Source: a virus
Lineage: Duplodnaviria; Heunggongvirae; Uroviricota; Caudoviricetes
Virus record (IMG/VR): IMGVR_UViG_2718217785_000004
DNA length: 33,279 nucleotides
Strand: one strand, 5' to 3'
The notes below the pieces were generated by a model. That model saw only the letters and a program-made list of their open reading frames with translations. It was not told where the DNA came from and did not search any database. Shown here one piece after another: positions 23,082 to 29,769 of this stretch (its first letter is position 1; the number at the start of each line of letters is the position of its first letter). The position numbers and the translations under genes are program-made.

Positions 23082-23324
23082 CGCCCGCTTCATGGGGCGG
23101 TTTTAATGCAGTTGCACAGCCATGTCAAAGCCATGTCAACACTAGCAGTATGTAAAAAGAGCAGATATAAGAAACAAATGCAGTTTCATGCAAAAAGCGA
23201 CACACATCATGTCATGAAACAAAGCCGCTAATGAACACTTGCTTTGGTTATCTTAAGGTTTTATCTTCAGCCTAACCTATTGATTGCATGAAACTAAAAT
23301 GAACTCTCAGCAAGGAACGACTAT

Positions 23325-25283
23325 ATGTCAGATTTCGAAATTAAAATTGATTTGAATGTGCTAAATCACCTAGGGATGAGTCTCTATTCCAATACTCCCG
23401 CGGTACTAACTGAGATTATATCAAATGCATGGGATGCAGATGCTCAAAATGTAGAAATTACACTTGATGTTGAGAAAGGAGAGGTCATCATTAAAGATGA
23501 TGGTCATGGCATGTCTAAAGATGACATTATTAATAAGTTCCTAAAAGTCGGTTATGCTCGCAGGGAACATGGAAGAGCCAAAAGCGATCATCTAAAACGT
23601 CAAGTTATGGGCAGAAAAGGTATTGGTAAGCTTGCCATGTTTTCACTTGCCAATAAAATCCAAGTTTATTCGTACAAAAAGGGGGAACAGCCTCAGGCCT
23701 TTGAGGTAGATGTCAAAGATTTACAGCAAAGTATCAAAGAATCAAAAAACTATATTGCTGACTCCCTTGAAATACCCGAAAATCTTGCTTACGGCACTAC
23801 AATTAAATTATTTGAACTAAAAAAAGCCATTGATAGGACTCAAACTTACCTCAGAAAGCGAATAGCTCGTCGATTTAGCATTATTGGCCCCAACCATAAC
23901 TTTACAGTTAAAATTAATGGGACCGATATTACACCGGCAGATAGAGATTTCCTTTCAGATCTCGAGTTCATTTGGGAATTTGGCGAATCCGACCCTGAAA
24001 GGATAAAATCCTGCACAAACATCACACAAAAAAACATATTACCAAATACTATTACCTTTGAAGGAAAAGATGTAAAAGTTAGTGGGTACATTGGCAGTGT
24101 AGTTAAGCCATCACAGTTAAAGAAAGACCCTGAAATATCTAACAACAGCATTACTGTAATCTCTCACGGACGTGTTTTTGAGGAGGACATATTATTAGAA
24201 TTTGGAAGTGCTAAAGTATTCACCAATTATCTGGTCGGTGAAATAGTCGCCGATTTTCTAGATGATAACGAAAAGCCTGATATGGCAACATCTTCTCGTC
24301 AAAAACTACAACAGAATGATCCAAGATACCCTGTACTTAAAGGTTTTCTGGAAAGAACGCTACAACTAATCGATAAAGATTGGGATAAATGGAGACGCGA
24401 AAAAGGAGTAAATGAAGTTAAAAGTAATACTCCAATAGTAAGTGAATGGCTGAATTCTCTCAAAAAACATGAGAGAGAAAGTGCCGAAAAGTTAATTGGA
24501 CGAGTAAACACATTCCGTTTTTCTGGTAATGAGGAAGAACAAAAAGCAGCAAGAAAAACCGTATTAAAAAATACGGTATTAGCCTTTGAAAGACTTAGAA
24601 TTCAAGACAACCTTGATGCATTAGATAAAATAAGCAACCTTCAATCAGAAAATTTTAAAGATGTATTTGCATCTGTCAATGACATTGAAGCAAGCATGTT
24701 TTATGAAATTACTTCGCAACGCCTTAAAGTAATTGAAAAATTCCAAAAAATAACTGATGAAAATCAGCTTGAAAGAGCTGTACAAATGTATTTATATGAT
24801 CATTTATGGTTATTGGATCCTTCATGGGAAAGAGTCACAGGCACATCTGTTATGGAGCAAACATTGACCAAGGAACTAAAACAGATAAACCCTGATGCTG
24901 CTAGCGGTGCTCGTATTGATATCGCTTTCAAAACCGTTTCTGGCAAGCATGTAATTATTGAGATGAAACGACCTAAAGTGCACCCAGATATAATGAACCT
25001 AGTCGCACAAGGTAATAAATATGTACAGGCAACGACACAATGGTTCTCCAATAACCCTAAAAATTGCCCAGGTGGAAATATACCGCATATAGAAGTAATA
25101 TTCCTGGTTGGCTCTGGATATTTACAAGAGAACCAACACTTTATAAATATGCAATTACTTTCTATCAATGGAAAAATATTGACATATAATGACCTAATCG
25201 TGCAATCAAAACAAGCCTATGCTGAATATCAAGACAAAAAGAATGATGCAGCTAGAATTATGAAAATAGTTGAGGGAATCTAA
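23325..25283 (+). CDS. GHKL-type (Hsp90/MORC-like) ATPase fused to a C-terminal PD-(D/E)xK-like putative nuclease; candidate defence/restriction effector
   Basis: N-box EIISNAWDADAQ (res ~31-41), G1 box DDGHGMS (58-64), G2 box GRKGIGKLAMFS (96-107); C-terminus has D...E-x-K pattern (RIDIAF ... VIIEMKRP; D532, E546, K548). AAGGAA Shine-Dalgarno 8 nt upstream of ATG; low GC relative to phage backbone. Confidence 0.65.
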   Translation: MSDFEIKIDLNVLNHLGMSLYSNTPAVLTEIISNAWDADAQNVEITLDVEKGEVIIKDDGHGMSKDDIINKFLKVGYARREHGRAKSDHLKRQVMGRKGIGKLAMFSLANKIQVYSYKKGEQPQAFEVDVKDLQQSIKESKNYIADSLEIPENLAYGTTIKLFELKKAIDRTQTYLRKRIARRFSIIGPNHNFTVKINGTDITPADRDFLSDLEFIWEFGESDPERIKSCTNITQKNILPNTITFEGKDVKVSGYIGSVVKPSQLKKDPEISNNSITVISHGRVFEEDILLEFGSAKVFTNYLVGEIVADFLDDNEKPDMATSSRQKLQQNDPRYPVLKGFLERTLQLIDKDWDKWRREKGVNEVKSNTPIVSEWLNSLKKHERESAEKLIGRVNTFRFSGNEEEQKAARKTVLKNTVLAFERLRIQDNLDALDKISNLQSENFKDVFASVNDIEASMFYEITSQRLKVIEKFQKITDENQLERAVQMYLYDHLWLLDPSWERVTGTSVMEQTLTKELKQINPDAASGARIDIAFKTVSGKHVIIEMKRPKVHPDIMNLVAQGNKYVQATTQWFSNNPKNCPGGNIPHIEVIFLVGSGYLQENQHFINMQLLSINGKILTYNDLIVQSKQAYAEYQDKKNDAARIMKIVEGI

Positions 25284-25288
25284 TTATA

Positions 25289-25312
25289 CCCCCCTGTTTT
25301 TTGACAGGGGGG
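25289..25312. terminator. GC-rich hairpin between convergent stops (CCCCCCTG-TTTTTTGA-CAGGGGGG), putative bidirectional terminator
   Basis: Seen in sequence between stop of the GHKL gene (25283) and stop of the methyltransferase (25325); no clear flanking U-tract. Confidence 0.45.
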
Positions 25313-25324
25313 ATGACATAAGTT

Positions 25325-26374
25325 TTAAATATTCATTTCTGACAAATGTTTTAAAATAGTTTCACCTACGACCTCACCAAGCCTAACAGGAACAGCATTA
25401 CCTATTAAACGCGCAACTGTTCTCATTTCAATTTTTACATCATCAGGCCAAAACTCATACTTTTCTGGGAATGACTGTAATAGCGCAGCCTCTCTTAAAC
25501 TTAATGCTCTATTTTGGACAGGGTGCCCAAAGCGTCCATTCCCATATCCAATACATTGAGTTGTAATTGTCGGTCCAAGTTTATCCCAACACATTCTCCC
25601 ATATACAGCAGTATATGTAGAACCACTTTCTTTTGTATGACATTTTGCTCTTAGCTCTTCTGGCCAATCACGCCATGTTCCACCAGGTTTTGATGCCATT
25701 ATTCTTTTTATATTAATATCAGATAATGATGCAGAGCGATGTAGTTTATCTCCAGCGTGAACAGCACCGGCACTAATTTCAGGAAGATTACCGATTATAT
25801 CTCGCACCGTTTTATAATCATTCTTCTCATGAGTTGGTGGAATTATTTCTATTTCTCCATATTTTGATGCCAATAACACTAATCTTGAACGACTTTGTGC
25901 CATTCCATAGTCTGGACAAAACACCACCCCATACCAAACAAAATAGCCATCATTTTTAAGAGACTTAATGAAGTCCTTAAAAACCTTATGATTCACCACT
26001 CGGGGAACGTTTTCCATTGTAATAATATCTGGCTTTGCAAATTTAATTTGCTTAGCAAAGCTATAAAGCAAAGACCATCTTTTATCTTTTGAACGTACTA
26101 CCCCTAATTTAGCACTATTGGTATAGCTTGAAAAAGGTTGGCATGGGGCACAACCAGCCAAAACTCGAACCTTCGCTCCTTCGAAATATTTAACTAATTC
26201 GCCGTCCTCAATGTCTGTAACACTTTTCTGGACAAAGAGTGATTTATTATTTGTCTCATAGGCAAATCGACAGGCTGCATCTATATCATAACCTGCAACT
26301 ACATTAAGCCCCGACTTCTGAAGACCGTGAGTCAAGCCACCCGCGCCACAGAATAAATCAACAACCTTAATCAA
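25325..26374 (-). CDS. DNA (cytosine-5)-methyltransferase
   Basis: Motif I DLFCGAGG, motif IV PCQPFS (catalytic Cys), ENV, QSRSR, GNAV motifs; ORF track starts at a TTG at 26476, but AGAAGGAGG Shine-Dalgarno 6 nt before a TTG at 26372..26374 (MIKVVDLFCGAGG) suggests the shorter start. Confidence 0.85.
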   Translation of the reverse strand: MIKVVDLFCGAGGLTHGLQKSGLNVVAGYDIDAACRFAYETNNKSLFVQKSVTDIEDGELVKYFEGAKVRVLAGCAPCQPFSSYTNSAKLGVVRSKDKRWSLLYSFAKQIKFAKPDIITMENVPRVVNHKVFKDFIKSLKNDGYFVWYGVVFCPDYGMAQSRSRLVLLASKYGEIEIIPPTHEKNDYKTVRDIIGNLPEISAGAVHAGDKLHRSASLSDINIKRIMASKPGGTWRDWPEELRAKCHTKESGSTYTAVYGRMCWDKLGPTITTQCIGYGNGRFGHPVQNRALSLREAALLQSFPEKYEFWPDDVKIEMRTVARLIGNAVPVRLGEVVGETILKHLSEMNI

Positions 26375-26437
26375 GATAAACCTCCTTCTAATGCTGTGGG
26401 GATTGTAGCATTGTTCTTTCTCATCATCGATGTTTAC

Positions 26438-26476
26438 TTGATGCTTGATTTGTGAATACAAAATCAAGCATGTCAA
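26438..26476 (-). promoter_or_regulatory. Palindrome GCTTGATTT-N9-AAATCAAGC overlapping a TTGACA -35-like hexamer upstream of the methyltransferase; candidate promoter/operator
   Basis: Seen in sequence in the AT-rich 110-bp gap between A stop and the MTase start; -10 element is weak (ACAAAT). Confidence 0.3.
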
Positions 26477-26485
26477 TCATTATTG

Positions 26486-28765
26486 TTAGTTTGTTTCAAA
26501 TCCCGCCCAACCATCAGAAATCGGATATGAAAACGTTTTCCCATCATAATTTACGGTCGCGCCACGCGCCAGCGCCTCAAGCTCCCATCGCTGCGGCCTG
26601 ATACCGTTCTGAGCAAGGTCAACGCGGATACGGGTAATTTGCATTCGTTCCGACCGGGCCAGTCTGGCCGATGGTGCAATTTCATGTGGTTTTAACGAGC
26701 TTCCGTTTCTTTGCTGACGATTTGGCGTTCTCCGACCGTGTTTTAATGCACCTCTGAGCGCCCTCACGACCTCCGGGTCACTCCATTCGATAACACTGTC
26801 ATCAACCAGATTAAGCACTGCTGCGGCGTGCTCAGAAGGTGTGGGAGCCGGTAACGAAGTATCACCACCGGTGAGTTTTCCACAGTTATTGACAGGACTC
26901 CGAGGCGCGGCGATGCCGCTTTTTAAAGTCAAAGGCTCAACGACCGGCACTTTCGGCACAATGCGCCAGTCCGTCGTTCTGGTGATATGAATATGACGCG
27001 CGCCGAGATGCGGCGCGTAAATGCCGACCACTCTCTCGACTTCTTCCTCGTACTCGTTAACGTCATCCGACGGGCTACGGGCAACCCTGACAGTCTGACA
27101 ATCGCGCGGAACATTTGCCCCACCCTGCGCGCTGATATACAACGCAAAATCACCACTGTCTGCGGCAGCGCGTGCAGCCTCGACGCGTTCGTCAAACTCA
27201 TCAGCAATGCTGACGCCGCGAGGCAATTTGCGTAGTTCACGGTAAGCCCCCATTGTCGGCAGGCCAACCGTTTTAAATTGCGGAATGCGCCACGTTGACG
27301 CCCATGCGGTAACAGCCGCGGCAGTGTCTTTCAGCGGCCTGCCGGTATCGTTATCGAGCTGACCATCCAGTGCATAGCCATCGATGTTTTTTGAAATGTA
27401 TTTCGCGATATACCCCGCAGCACCGCCCCGGTTAAGGTGTTTTGCCTGAAAACGGTTTCGCGCAGCTCCTCTTTCGTCGCCATCCTCTTTGAGCGCGTAG
27501 CGACGCATGATTTCAATAATCTGGTTACGCTGGCGTGGATTACAAAAAAGCATCATATGCCAGTGCGGCGTTCCGTCGTGGTGTGGCTCGACGACTCGCA
27601 AACCGTAGACCTGTAAATCATTATCCTTGAATGCCGTGCGCATCAGGCTCCAGATACGGCAGAGATAACGCTGCGCATCCTTTGGATTAAATGCCTCATC
27701 GTTCCAGCCGTGATTTAGCTGGACGGTTTTACTTTCTCCTTTTCCGACCTGACGTGTCGGGTGATACTTTGACGGCGCGGTCAGCGTGATAAACATCCCC
27801 ACATCACCCTCTGCTGCGGCGTAACGCTCAATACCGGCGATGGTGTTCATCAGCTCCATCCGGCGAATTTCTGGATTAGAAATACTGCCCATCACCTTAC
27901 TGATAAGGTCGATGCGCTCGCCGGTTTCCTTGTTTTCAAGGTCACACGATTTAAGAAACTCCAGATTTGCCTGGCGGCGCGCACGCACATCACGAATGGC
28001 ATGTTTACTGGCATAAGGAGAACGGTCTTTATTGACCTCCCCGACAGCAATCAGTAACGCCTCATGCCAGCGCATACGCTGGCCTTTAAGCTGATGAGTC
28101 CACCACTCATCGTTAAACAGACGGGCAATGGCAGAATATGCCTGCCTCGTGGTTATCTGTCCTTTACGGTATTTTTTCCAGTAGAGCGGGGAAATATTGA
28201 AAGCACGTGCAGCGCCAGCAACATGACCATACAGGTGAGTCTGCGCCTCATCCGTAAACAGCGATTCTTTTTCGCCATGTGCATCAACCCATGCATCGCA
28301 GAGTTCCTCATACATCATGAAAAGCTGCGATGAGATACGGGCGGCAAACTTTTTCAGCTCCTTGTCATTCATTCCAGGCAGGCGCGCATAGTGGTCACGC
28401 TCTGCCAGAAACAGCAACGACGCGTCGGTGTTCATTTCATGGCGCTGATTCACGCGCTCAATGCGCGGCCATAAACGACGCTGAAAAGTAGATGTGAGGA
28501 AATAAAACCCGTGCACCGGGCTTTTATTGCGCCGGATGTAGTCATAGCGTGAAGTAAACAGCGAGCGCAAAAAGTAAGGCAGGCGGTTAATCGTGGATAA
28601 AACACCTTGCACCTGACGCATCTCGTCACGTGTAAGGGGTCTTTCGCGCCCGACGGCCTCGCGTGGCGCGTTCCATGCATAAGCACCGGTAAACGCCTTA
28701 CCGGTGCCTGCAGCAAATGCTGACGGAGGTACGCAGGTGTATTGCTCCTGGAAAGAATGACTCAT
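26486..28765 (-). CDS. A: Replication initiation protein A (rolling-circle nickase)
   Basis: 759-aa ORF, size/position of P2 gpA at the end of the early operon. Confidence 0.85.
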   Translation of the reverse strand: MSHSFQEQYTCVPPSAFAAGTGKAFTGAYAWNAPREAVGRERPLTRDEMRQVQGVLSTINRLPYFLRSLFTSRYDYIRRNKSPVHGFYFLTSTFQRRLWPRIERVNQRHEMNTDASLLFLAERDHYARLPGMNDKELKKFAARISSQLFMMYEELCDAWVDAHGEKESLFTDEAQTHLYGHVAGAARAFNISPLYWKKYRKGQITTRQAYSAIARLFNDEWWTHQLKGQRMRWHEALLIAVGEVNKDRSPYASKHAIRDVRARRQANLEFLKSCDLENKETGERIDLISKVMGSISNPEIRRMELMNTIAGIERYAAAEGDVGMFITLTAPSKYHPTRQVGKGESKTVQLNHGWNDEAFNPKDAQRYLCRIWSLMRTAFKDNDLQVYGLRVVEPHHDGTPHWHMMLFCNPRQRNQIIEIMRRYALKEDGDERGAARNRFQAKHLNRGGAAGYIAKYISKNIDGYALDGQLDNDTGRPLKDTAAAVTAWASTWRIPQFKTVGLPTMGAYRELRKLPRGVSIADEFDERVEAARAAADSGDFALYISAQGGANVPRDCQTVRVARSPSDDVNEYEEEVERVVGIYAPHLGARHIHITRTTDWRIVPKVPVVEPLTLKSGIAAPRSPVNNCGKLTGGDTSLPAPTPSEHAAAVLNLVDDSVIEWSDPEVVRALRGALKHGRRTPNRQQRNGSSLKPHEIAPSARLARSERMQITRIRVDLAQNGIRPQRWELEALARGATVNYDGKTFSYPISDGWAGFETN

Positions 28766-29769
28766 TCACATACACCGGCATAGACACTACTGCAAACTGA
28801 CTTATCATTCACCGAAGCCAGCAAATCAAACTGTGCCCCGCCACGCGTGGTCATCGCCCAGTCACGATAAGACTCAATTCCGTAAGCATCGACAGTAATA
28901 ATATCAATGCGGCGTTCCGCACGACGCGGGTCATGAGTTGACGGGAAGAAAGTAGAATTTCCGCGTCTGGAGCATGCGGCGACAAGTCGCTCCCATTCCG
29001 CAACACGCTTAACCTCTTCCGGCCAGCGACTAAAAATTTCAGCTAATTCAGACTTTCTGGCGTGGATGCAGGGCATACAACCGACACGACTGCATCCCTG
29101 CTGGTATAACGGATTAGGTTTAATTCCATGACGTCTTGCAAATGCAAATACCTCCTCATGCGTCCAGTTCAGAATAGGACGGTATACATGGAGCCCGGGC
29201 GTATTGTCCGCATCCTCTTCCCAGGCAGGCAGACCCGCGCGCGCAGGAGACTCCTGAGCGCGAACCCCCTGCCAGCTAATTACCTCATCAAACTCATTAA
29301 GCGCAGGTAACACGACCTGAGTACGTACTGGCTCATGTTTAAGGTCAAAAGTGCAAAATCTGGCTTTAGTGGAAGGAAATCGCCCTTTCCACATGCACAA
29401 ATCAAGAAATGGGATACCAGTAGGCTTGAGAATTTCCAGCGCACAATTGATGCGCTCTGCCGCTTCCCCCGGAGACATTCCGCACTCTTCAACCAGAGAA
29501 ACAGGCCATTTCTCAGCAATAAACTTGCGCTTACCTTCAATCTGTCGGGAGAAGTCAGCTTTAACCCGTTTAACCGGCCCGAGTCGGTTCTCCAGATAAT
29601 CGAGATACTCCATTGTCTGCGGATGCTCATGCCCGGTGTCTGCAAAAACCGGCAAAAAATGCACACCGCTTTCAATACCAACAAGCCATTGAGCAAGGCT
29701 ATCCTTTCCGCCAGAAACAGAAATAATATTGATAGAGCTTTCAGCTCGGCAGCGGGTATCAACTATCAT
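28762..29769 (-). CDS. PAPS-reductase-family PP-loop protein (phosphoadenosine-phosphosulfate reductase/DndC-like fold)
   Basis: PP-loop motif SVSGGKDS near N-terminus and C-terminal Cys cluster CSRVGCMPC; stop overlaps the A start by 4 bp. Confidence 0.7.
   Translation of the reverse strand: MIVDTRCRAESSINIISVSGGKDSLAQWLVGIESGVHFLPVFADTGHEHPQTMEYLDYLENRLGPVKRVKADFSRQIEGKRKFIAEKWPVSLVEECGMSPGEAAERINCALEILKPTGIPFLDLCMWKGRFPSTKARFCTFDLKHEPVRTQVVLPALNEFDEVISWQGVRAQESPARAGLPAWEEDADNTPGLHVYRPILNWTHEEVFAFARRHGIKPNPLYQQGCSRVGCMPCIHARKSELAEIFSRWPEEVKRVAEWERLVAACSRRGNSTFFPSTHDPRRAERRIDIITVDAYGIESYRDWAMTTRGGAQFDLLASVNDKSVCSSVYAGVCE

Follow-up and report, generated by a model that had tools for sequence, protein, structure and literature searches.

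We examined a DNA methyltransferase gene (hereafter the methylase) and its control region in a 33,279-nucleotide stretch of DNA from a Caudoviricetes virus (IMG/VR record IMGVR_UViG_2718217785_000004; the whole of this stretch is called the window below), which is an Escherichia coli P2-like prophage and is identical to IMG/VR contig 2718217713_000004. The gene (25325..26374, minus strand) encodes a C5-cytosine (m5C) DNA methyltransferase of 349 aa with a TTG start (Pfam DNA_methylase PF00145, 9.2e-56, residues 2-341; TIGR00675 dcm). It carries the canonical m5C methylase motifs FCGAGG and PCQ, with motif I (DLFCGAGG) from residue 6, and both RefSeq and phage PhiR44_1, which is 99.7% identical to the window across the cassette, have it annotated with 1050 nt. 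Convergent to the methylase lies the gene for a restriction endonuclease of 652 aa (23325..25283, plus strand), assigned to the BbrUII/HgiDII family (GHKL ATPase, paraMORC3 type) by NCBIfam NF050001 with 751 bits against a cutoff of 550; its N-terminus holds the GHKL ATPase domain (HATPase_c_3, 2.3e-25), PADLOC identifies it as REase_II (2.3e-91), and the PhiR44_1 annotation names it 'ParaMORC3'. Between the two convergent genes, an inverted-repeat search located a bidirectional terminator hairpin, CCCCCCTGT-N6-ACAGGGGGG, with a perfect 9-bp stem (25289..25312). On the other side of the methylase, and on the same minus strand as the original prediction had noted, is the replication gene A (gpA; 26486..28765, stop codon at 26488-26486; Pfam Phage_GPA, 4.4e-124), the last gene of the P2-type early operon, with 91-99% DNA identity to P2-like phages up to ~26499, and a Pfam domain scan places the terminase P and the portal Q beyond the restriction gene. 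The cassette is thus found between gpA and the portal gene Q, a place whose contents vary among relatives: backbone homology to P2-like phages runs out where gene A ends, and pro147 and P24B2 carry other cargo. This is the cos-proximal gpA-gpQ defence hotspot of P2-like phages described by Rousset et al., where old and tin are located in P2 (PMC9122126). On their domain content, the methylase and the convergent GHKL/paraMORC3 nuclease are a Type II restriction-modification cassette of the HgiDII/BbrUII type placed in this hotspot. The whole cassette is present at at least 99.8% identity in 30 complete E. coli genomes, and ~1,400 other genomes match the flanks only.

Next, we investigated the DNA upstream of the methylase across relatives of the cassette, which were gathered by coding-sequence motifs only and by exact-protein look-ups, after which the upstream regions were anchored; because the loci were gathered in this way, no upstream motif was selected for. 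The clade of the window comprises 14 lineages with 56-100% methylase protein identity, most of them in P2-like hotspots and one in a Vibrio cholerae island, and their flanking DNA is unalignable. The only upstream blocks conserved in the 14 lineages, at fixed spacing, are CATCGATG, a TG, TAcAAT, and a ribosome-binding site with the TTG (or GTG) start. The first of these is an 8-bp palindrome (26425..26432, minus strand), kept in all 14 lineages with one mismatch in three, and it contains the predicted -35 hexamer TCGATG (26430-26425) with its TCGA core (26430-26427). After a 17-nt spacer follows the predicted extended -10 (26402..26410, minus strand), made of TGC (26410-26408) and TACAAT (26407-26402), of which TG and TAnnnT are each found in 14/14 lineages; this is the sigma-70 extended -10 arrangement, with TGn directly before a -10 that has A at position 2 and T at position 6. 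From the promoter geometry, transcription is predicted to start 5-7 nt past the -10 (26395..26397, minus strand), which would give a 5' leader of ~21-23 nt. In phage P24B2 the homologous promoter, TCGAGA-17-TATACT, is picked up by a promoter scan tool. An intrinsic terminator lies upstream of the methylase promoter in lineage L022, and terminator-like hairpins are present likewise in L065, L086, L055 and L075, so that the methylase in these lineages forms an insulated, self-sufficient unit. The original prediction had suggested that the methylase has its own promoter and, if it protects the host, is expressed in the lysogen. An autonomous transcription unit with its own sigma-70 promoter is very probable given the conservation of these blocks, and that part of the proposal stands; the promoter in question is distinct from the TTGACA hexamer and the palindrome that had been named as its elements.

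The translation signals agree with what had been proposed from the window. A strong ribosome-binding site, AGAAGGAGG (26381..26389, minus strand), a GGAGG-type site conserved in related lineages, is followed 6 nt later by the TTG at 26374-26372. This TTG is kept as the start in 10 lineages (66-100% identity), two others have GTG, and in L022, L023 and L025 an in-frame stop directly upstream leaves the TTG as the first possible start. The rare TTG is retained beside the strong GGAGG site in L026-L029, L106-L109 and L111, down to 66% protein identity, which suggests selection for a capped rate of translation. Taken as a mechanism, the methylase gene would bring along its own promoter as part of the cassette, with -35 TCGATG and -10 TACAAT set apart by 17 nt that end in TGC; downstream would follow a short leader, a strong ribosome-binding site and a TTG start kept weak by design. 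Such a promoter would let the methylase be made when the early promoter is repressed in the lysogen, and a supply of methylase in that state is required by logic because an intact nuclease gene is co-conserved with the methylase in every lineage of the clade (68-100% identity). During lytic growth, read-through from the early operon probably adds further methylase, since no terminator intervenes after gene A in the window lineage.

Upon extending the comparison to the wider methylase family, clustered at 80% identity, we observed that the TCGA in the -35 is not restricted to the clade of the window. In a first tally of 61 clusters, the -35 place was occupied by TCGA in 23, by the next best 4-mer in 5 and by TTGA in 1, against an average of 0.5 and a maximum of 4 in shuffles, and spacers of 15, 16, 18 and 19 nt yielded 0, 1, 1 and 5 cases, respectively. 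In the later set of 70 clusters, TCGA-NN-N17-TANNNT is present in 29, situated 41-79 nt before the start codon. The base preceding TCGA is A or C in 27 of these 29 (p = 4e-7) and the base following it is T or G in 25 (p = 9e-5); with this flank preference the box is a degenerate palindrome, A/C-TCGA-T/G, and sigma-70 does not explain the palindromic preference. A C at position 2 of the -35 is non-consensus for sigma-70, which prefers T, and its invariance therefore points to selection for something other than promoter strength. The box goes with the methylase whatever its partner, be it a paraMORC3 nuclease in convergent or tandem orientation or a pair of DUF262 (GmrSD_N) and HEPN proteins. 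The latter arrangement, with a convergent DUF262 (GmrSD_N) and HEPN (MAE_28990-like) pair in place of paraMORC3, was observed in L001, L037, L040, L074, L116 and L117, in P2-like hotspots and islands, and the methylase module appears to have been swapped between effector modules. In the copy of phage P24B2 (L001:3974-5003), the methylase matches lie in two frames (residues 2-232 and 231-348) and only 705 nt are annotated, and the gene appears frameshifted. A further locus, L115 (2300-2500), has a helicase-flanked context (UvrD / SNF2, DISARM-like) and the homologous promoter TCAATG-17-TAGAAT, a change of the kind expected from deamination of a methylated CpG (CpG to CpA in the TCGA box).

The gap that separates the methylase from gene A is 111 nt long (26485-26375) and AT-rich, with 35% GC versus 53% in gene A, and it does hold the two elements on which the original prediction had built its promoter and operator, a TTGACA hexamer (26476-26471) and a palindrome with an N9 spacer, for which only the arm length had to be corrected, from 9 to 11 nt. 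In that model TTGACA is the -35 and the inverted repeat, ATGCTTGATTT (26471-26461)-N9-AAATCAAGCAT (26451-26441), which spans 26441..26471 with arms that are 100% complementary, is an operator through which the methylase or another repressor exerts autoregulation. No other perfect inverted repeat of 11 nt with arms 3-20 nt apart exists in the 33-kb window, the repeat overlaps the last base of TTGACA, and a first-order Markov model expects 0.17 such repeats in the whole window and 0.02 within the AT-rich cassette of 3.6 kb; pure local chance is unlikely, though the repeat was picked post hoc, and m5C methylases that autoregulate do exist (PMC3874152). The hexamer on its own is not significant, and a promoter consensus scan of the gap returned no sigma-70-like pair. 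The hexamers found 15-18 nt downstream of TTGACA (TCACAA, CACAAA, ACAAAT and CAAATC) all lack the near-invariant A at -10 position 2, and without a -10 partner at this distance TTGACA makes no usable promoter; the conserved promoter lies 40-75 nt further downstream. The origin of the elements also speaks against the model. TTGACA and the left arm belong to a backbone segment downstream of gene A (26459..26481, minus strand) that is identical at 21/23 positions to the DNA downstream of gene A in pro147, a phage that reads AATGATTGAAATGGTTGATTTTG at that place and continues with other cargo, a hypothetical gene and retron/reverse-transcriptase genes. P2-type backbone homology usually ends near the gene A stop codon and in pro147-like phages extends to window position 26459, homology to diverged copies of the cassette (L020, L021 and L107; 83-90% methylase identity) starts at 26441-26439, and the right arm lies inside the 17-nt stretch 26458-26442, which is found in neither the backbone nor the related cassettes. 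The repeat therefore straddles the junction between backbone and cassette. Of the 113 loci searched, 9 contain the exact repeat, all with methylases at least 99.7% identical; no other lineage of the clade has it, not even L110 and L112, in which the methylase likewise directly follows gene A. A search of the window for further copies of the half-site, as a regulon would leave, gave one match with 1 mismatch, which is the chance level, and the centres of the half-sites are 20 bp apart. Known means of such control are also lacking in the cassette: the methylase has no room for an N-terminal helix-turn-helix because its catalytic domain spans residues 2-341 of 349, no small open reading frame (ORF) for a C-protein lies between gene A and the methylase, and between Q and the nuclease only ORFs of 26-53 aa were found, with low-complexity, implausible translations (by inspection, no domain scan). 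Altogether, the backbone origin, the restriction of the repeat to one lineage, the lack of a -10, of a DNA-binding extension and of a C-protein gene make it very improbable that TTGACA and the palindrome serve as promoter and operator of the methylase.

A role of the repeat at the RNA level, in which its hairpin would stabilise the 3' end of the early transcript, act as a processing site or partly attenuate read-through into the methylase, is in our assessment unlikely, if clearly less so than an operator. As RNA, the repeat forms an 11-bp hairpin of -13.0 kcal/mol, 15 nt past the gene A stop, that is present in the centroid fold, and most other 9-10-nt repeats in the window resemble terminators. 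Against this, the stem is AU-rich, with 3/11 G-C pairs, and is followed by CAAGUAAACAUCG, with no U-tract on either strand; it does not have the make-up of an intrinsic terminator, and a terminator scan was silent at the repeat. Folded as a whole, the gap is not unusual compared with shuffles (z = -0.64). No Rfam family came close to its gathering score in 25200-26700 even under a permissive threshold, and L110 and L112, which share the gene order, do not keep the hairpin. The most economical reading of the 11-nt repeat appears to be a recombination scar joining the cassette to the backbone, with the right arm an inverted copy of the adjacent backbone inserted at the junction; it would then have no part in methylase control and would at best act as an RNA hairpin where the gene A message ends. 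It can also be asked whether the methylase has a promoter of its own at all, or merely closes the repressed early operon and is made only lytically as an orphan or anti-restriction methylase, an alternative that the original prediction had raised. The shared strand with gene A and the lack of an intrinsic terminator between the two in the window lineage would permit this. The intact, co-conserved restriction partner counts against an orphan enzyme, and with such a nuclease gene at hand a methylase that is silent in the lysogen would be lethal; moreover, the promoter blocks are kept where other genes or terminators separate the methylase from gene A, and in non-P2 contexts such as islands of Vibrio and Aeromonas. 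We regard a methylase dependent on the early operon as highly improbable.

Regarding the function of the TCGA box, we propose that it may be the methylase's own target or binding site, so that methylation or occupancy of the -35 would exert negative feedback on the promoter; by analogy with known systems, this is possible, if somewhat short of probable. The box is read in this way because the -35 sits in a conserved palindrome with a non-consensus, invariant C. M.HgiDII, a characterised member of the family, methylates GTCGAC, whose core is TCGA (PMC5867850). An m5C motif RTCGAY has been reported in B. breve, as RT(m5C)GAY, and an m5C motif CTCGAG with relaxed flanks has been reported in the archaeon Halorubrum. 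Across the methylase family, the variable region that separates the catalytic motifs shows high conservation, consistent with a shared core specificity. With feedback of this kind, transcription would proceed at one rate from an incoming, still unmethylated copy and at another from the methylated copy already resident, possibly since 5-methyl-C would offer a thymine-like methyl group where sigma-70 prefers T. A broader proposal, which we put forward tentatively, is that the HgiDII-like m5C methylase family is a self-limiting module with its own target, A/C-TCGA-T/G, built into the -35 exactly 17 nt from the -10, forming a regulator-free epigenetic switch that is reused with at least three effector modules. 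The counts of sites in the window do not discriminate between specificities, with A/C-TCGA-T/G (9 versus 14.7-31.5 expected) and GTCGAC (3 versus 10.6 expected) both depleted. Likewise, domain scans of the partners in clades with a CTCGAG box, in which an XhoI-type enzyme was sought, returned DUF262 and HEPN, which are silent on specificity, and the names of methylase homologues offered generic labels only as a guide to specificity.

Without any methylase-dependent feedback, the TCGA box could be a weak form of the -35 that has simply been inherited with a mobile methylase module, or a site for a host or other protein. A weak -35 joined to an extended -10 is a workable constitutive design, and the sequence of the methylase does not fix its target specificity, nor does the flank class co-vary with methylase residues. 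Neutral inheritance, however, cannot keep four bases and an exact 17-nt spacing amid unalignable DNA, and selection on promoter strength would favour T at position 2, whereas TTGA was found once against 23 occurrences of TCGA; the flank preference, in addition, is palindromic. We consider such a plain promoter rather unlikely. The explanation that we favour as a whole, a restriction-modification cassette whose methylase would have its own promoter with feedback through the TCGA box and whose 11-nt repeat would be a scar, appears moderately probable. Several observations weigh against it. The motif is missing from 41 of the 70 clusters, the -35 of the window matches the consensus at 3/6 positions, and the consensus scan tool is silent on the window promoter. 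CATCGATG does not contain GTCGAC, so there is no full cognate site in it if the specificity is HgiDII-like, and a comparison of methylase residues with the flank class of the box (ATCGAT versus CTCGAG) found three loosely disjoint columns, none of them clean, and no flank-specific co-variation. As for the repeat, the 30 E. coli copies are so similar (at least 99.8% identity) that they neither support nor exclude selection on it, and a repeat this unusual statistically could have a lineage-specific role.

When comparing the cassette with known systems, we find that it is an ordinary one, of the HgiDII/BbrUII (paraMORC3) kind in a known hotspot. HgiDII and BbrUII (GTCGAC) likewise pair an m5C methylase with a GHKL endonuclease ('paraMORC3'), and the restriction protein here shares the N-terminal GHKL ATPase and scores above the NCBIfam equivalog cutoff (PMC2441816, PMC2292703), with the methylase an m5C enzyme of the same family (PMC5867850). 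The present system differs in having convergent genes, each with its own promoter, where many relatives have a tandem arrangement, in being carried by a P2-like prophage, and in having only a putative target, against the GTCGAC of HgiDII. The P2 old/tin locus shares the gpA-gpQ position and the variable cargo among similar phages (retron/reverse transcriptase in pro147, and methylase with DUF262/HEPN in P24B2-like phages), and defence genes of the hotspot are expected to be expressed from the prophage (PMC9122126); the cargo here is a classical restriction-modification pair and not an abortive-infection system. In terms of regulation, the closest likeness is to CfrBI and LlaDII, in which the methylase promoter is controlled by a cognate site inside it (PMC3874152). 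Here a short palindrome with TCGA, the core of the site known in the family, lies over the methylase -35 under strong selection and no separate regulator gene is present. The genes of CfrBI are divergent and share one control region (10.64898/2025.12.04.692298), whereas here they are convergent, the upstream region of the restriction gene lacks TCGA, and methylation of the box is a proposal made from sequence. A second group, the SsoII, Ecl18kI, EcoRII, MspI and ScrFIA methylases, which repress their own promoter through an N-terminal helix-turn-helix (PMC3874152 for SsoII, EcoRII, MspI and ScrFIA), resembles the present case in being m5C methylases with a palindrome near the promoter. The extension of ~70 aa that carries it is absent here, the methylase having no other Pfam domain, and the large palindrome is not conserved here, being found only in the lineage of at least 99.7% identity. 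Systems with a C-protein (PvuII, AhdI, Esp1396I and Kpn2I) share the need for methylase before nuclease on entering a new host, and for Kpn2I a weak restriction-gene promoter is described, which the restriction gene here appears to parallel; in contrast to these systems, no small helix-turn-helix gene was found anywhere in the cassette. Within the literature available to us, we found no account of a TCGA box in the -35 for the HgiDII-like methylase family. The conserved box resembles control of the CfrBI/LlaDII type, and would be a testable further case of regulation of a known kind, not a kind of its own.

Examining the restriction gene, we found a candidate weak promoter, TTGCTT-17-TATCTT (23239..23267, plus strand), which falls below the scan threshold and is tentative. 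The layout TTGnnT-17-TATCTT recurs upstream of the restriction gene in L027 and L107, with a spacing of 21 nt in L106, and a TCGA box upstream of this gene is absent in the window and sporadic elsewhere. Tentatively, both the promoter and the ribosome-binding site of the restriction gene would be weak, which fits a methylase-first design. About 140 nt upstream of the gene (23178-23192, plus strand), the motif ATGCAnnTTCATGCA is common to 9/11 diverged lineages (k-mer TTCATGC), with homologous places in L025, L027, L029 and L106-L110, and it may belong to the backbone on the cos side or take part in control of the restriction gene. Inside the restriction gene, an antisense near-consensus sigma-70 promoter (24679-24652, minus strand; TTGACA-16-TAAAAT, 11/12) was rejected as probably due to chance, both hexamers varying at synonymous sites in seven diverged lineages. 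Directly past the terminator 3' of the portal gene Q we observe a tandem direct repeat, GCCATGTCAA-A-GCCATGTCAA (23119-23139, plus strand), in a region that is expected to hold the cos site in P2-like phages. At the other end of the locus, a 335-aa protein with a PAPS-reductase domain (28762-29769, minus strand) is encoded directly upstream of gene A, overlapping its start and lying within the early operon, and at approximately this position related phages encode another DNA methylase (L108) or a MethyltransfD12 gene of the Dam type (L110 and L112).

A restriction system carried by a prophage needs its methylase ahead of the nuclease as well as together with it, in a genome whose early genes are shut off. 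The control region that would serve this need can be read from comparative sequence, and it differs from the one that is most striking by eye, a warning that palindromes spanning junctions in phage hotspots can be recombination scars and not operators. If the feedback proposal is true, the target of the family's methylases would have to be shorter, or less strict, than the GTCGAC ascribed to HgiDII, and the switch would be shared by at least three effector modules, the paraMORC3 nuclease, the DUF262 and HEPN pair and the DISARM-like helicases. Overall, the TCGA box found in the -35 across the family leads to a prediction that is simple and testable: epigenetic feedback with no regulator protein, in a large group of methylases whose partners include several defence effectors.

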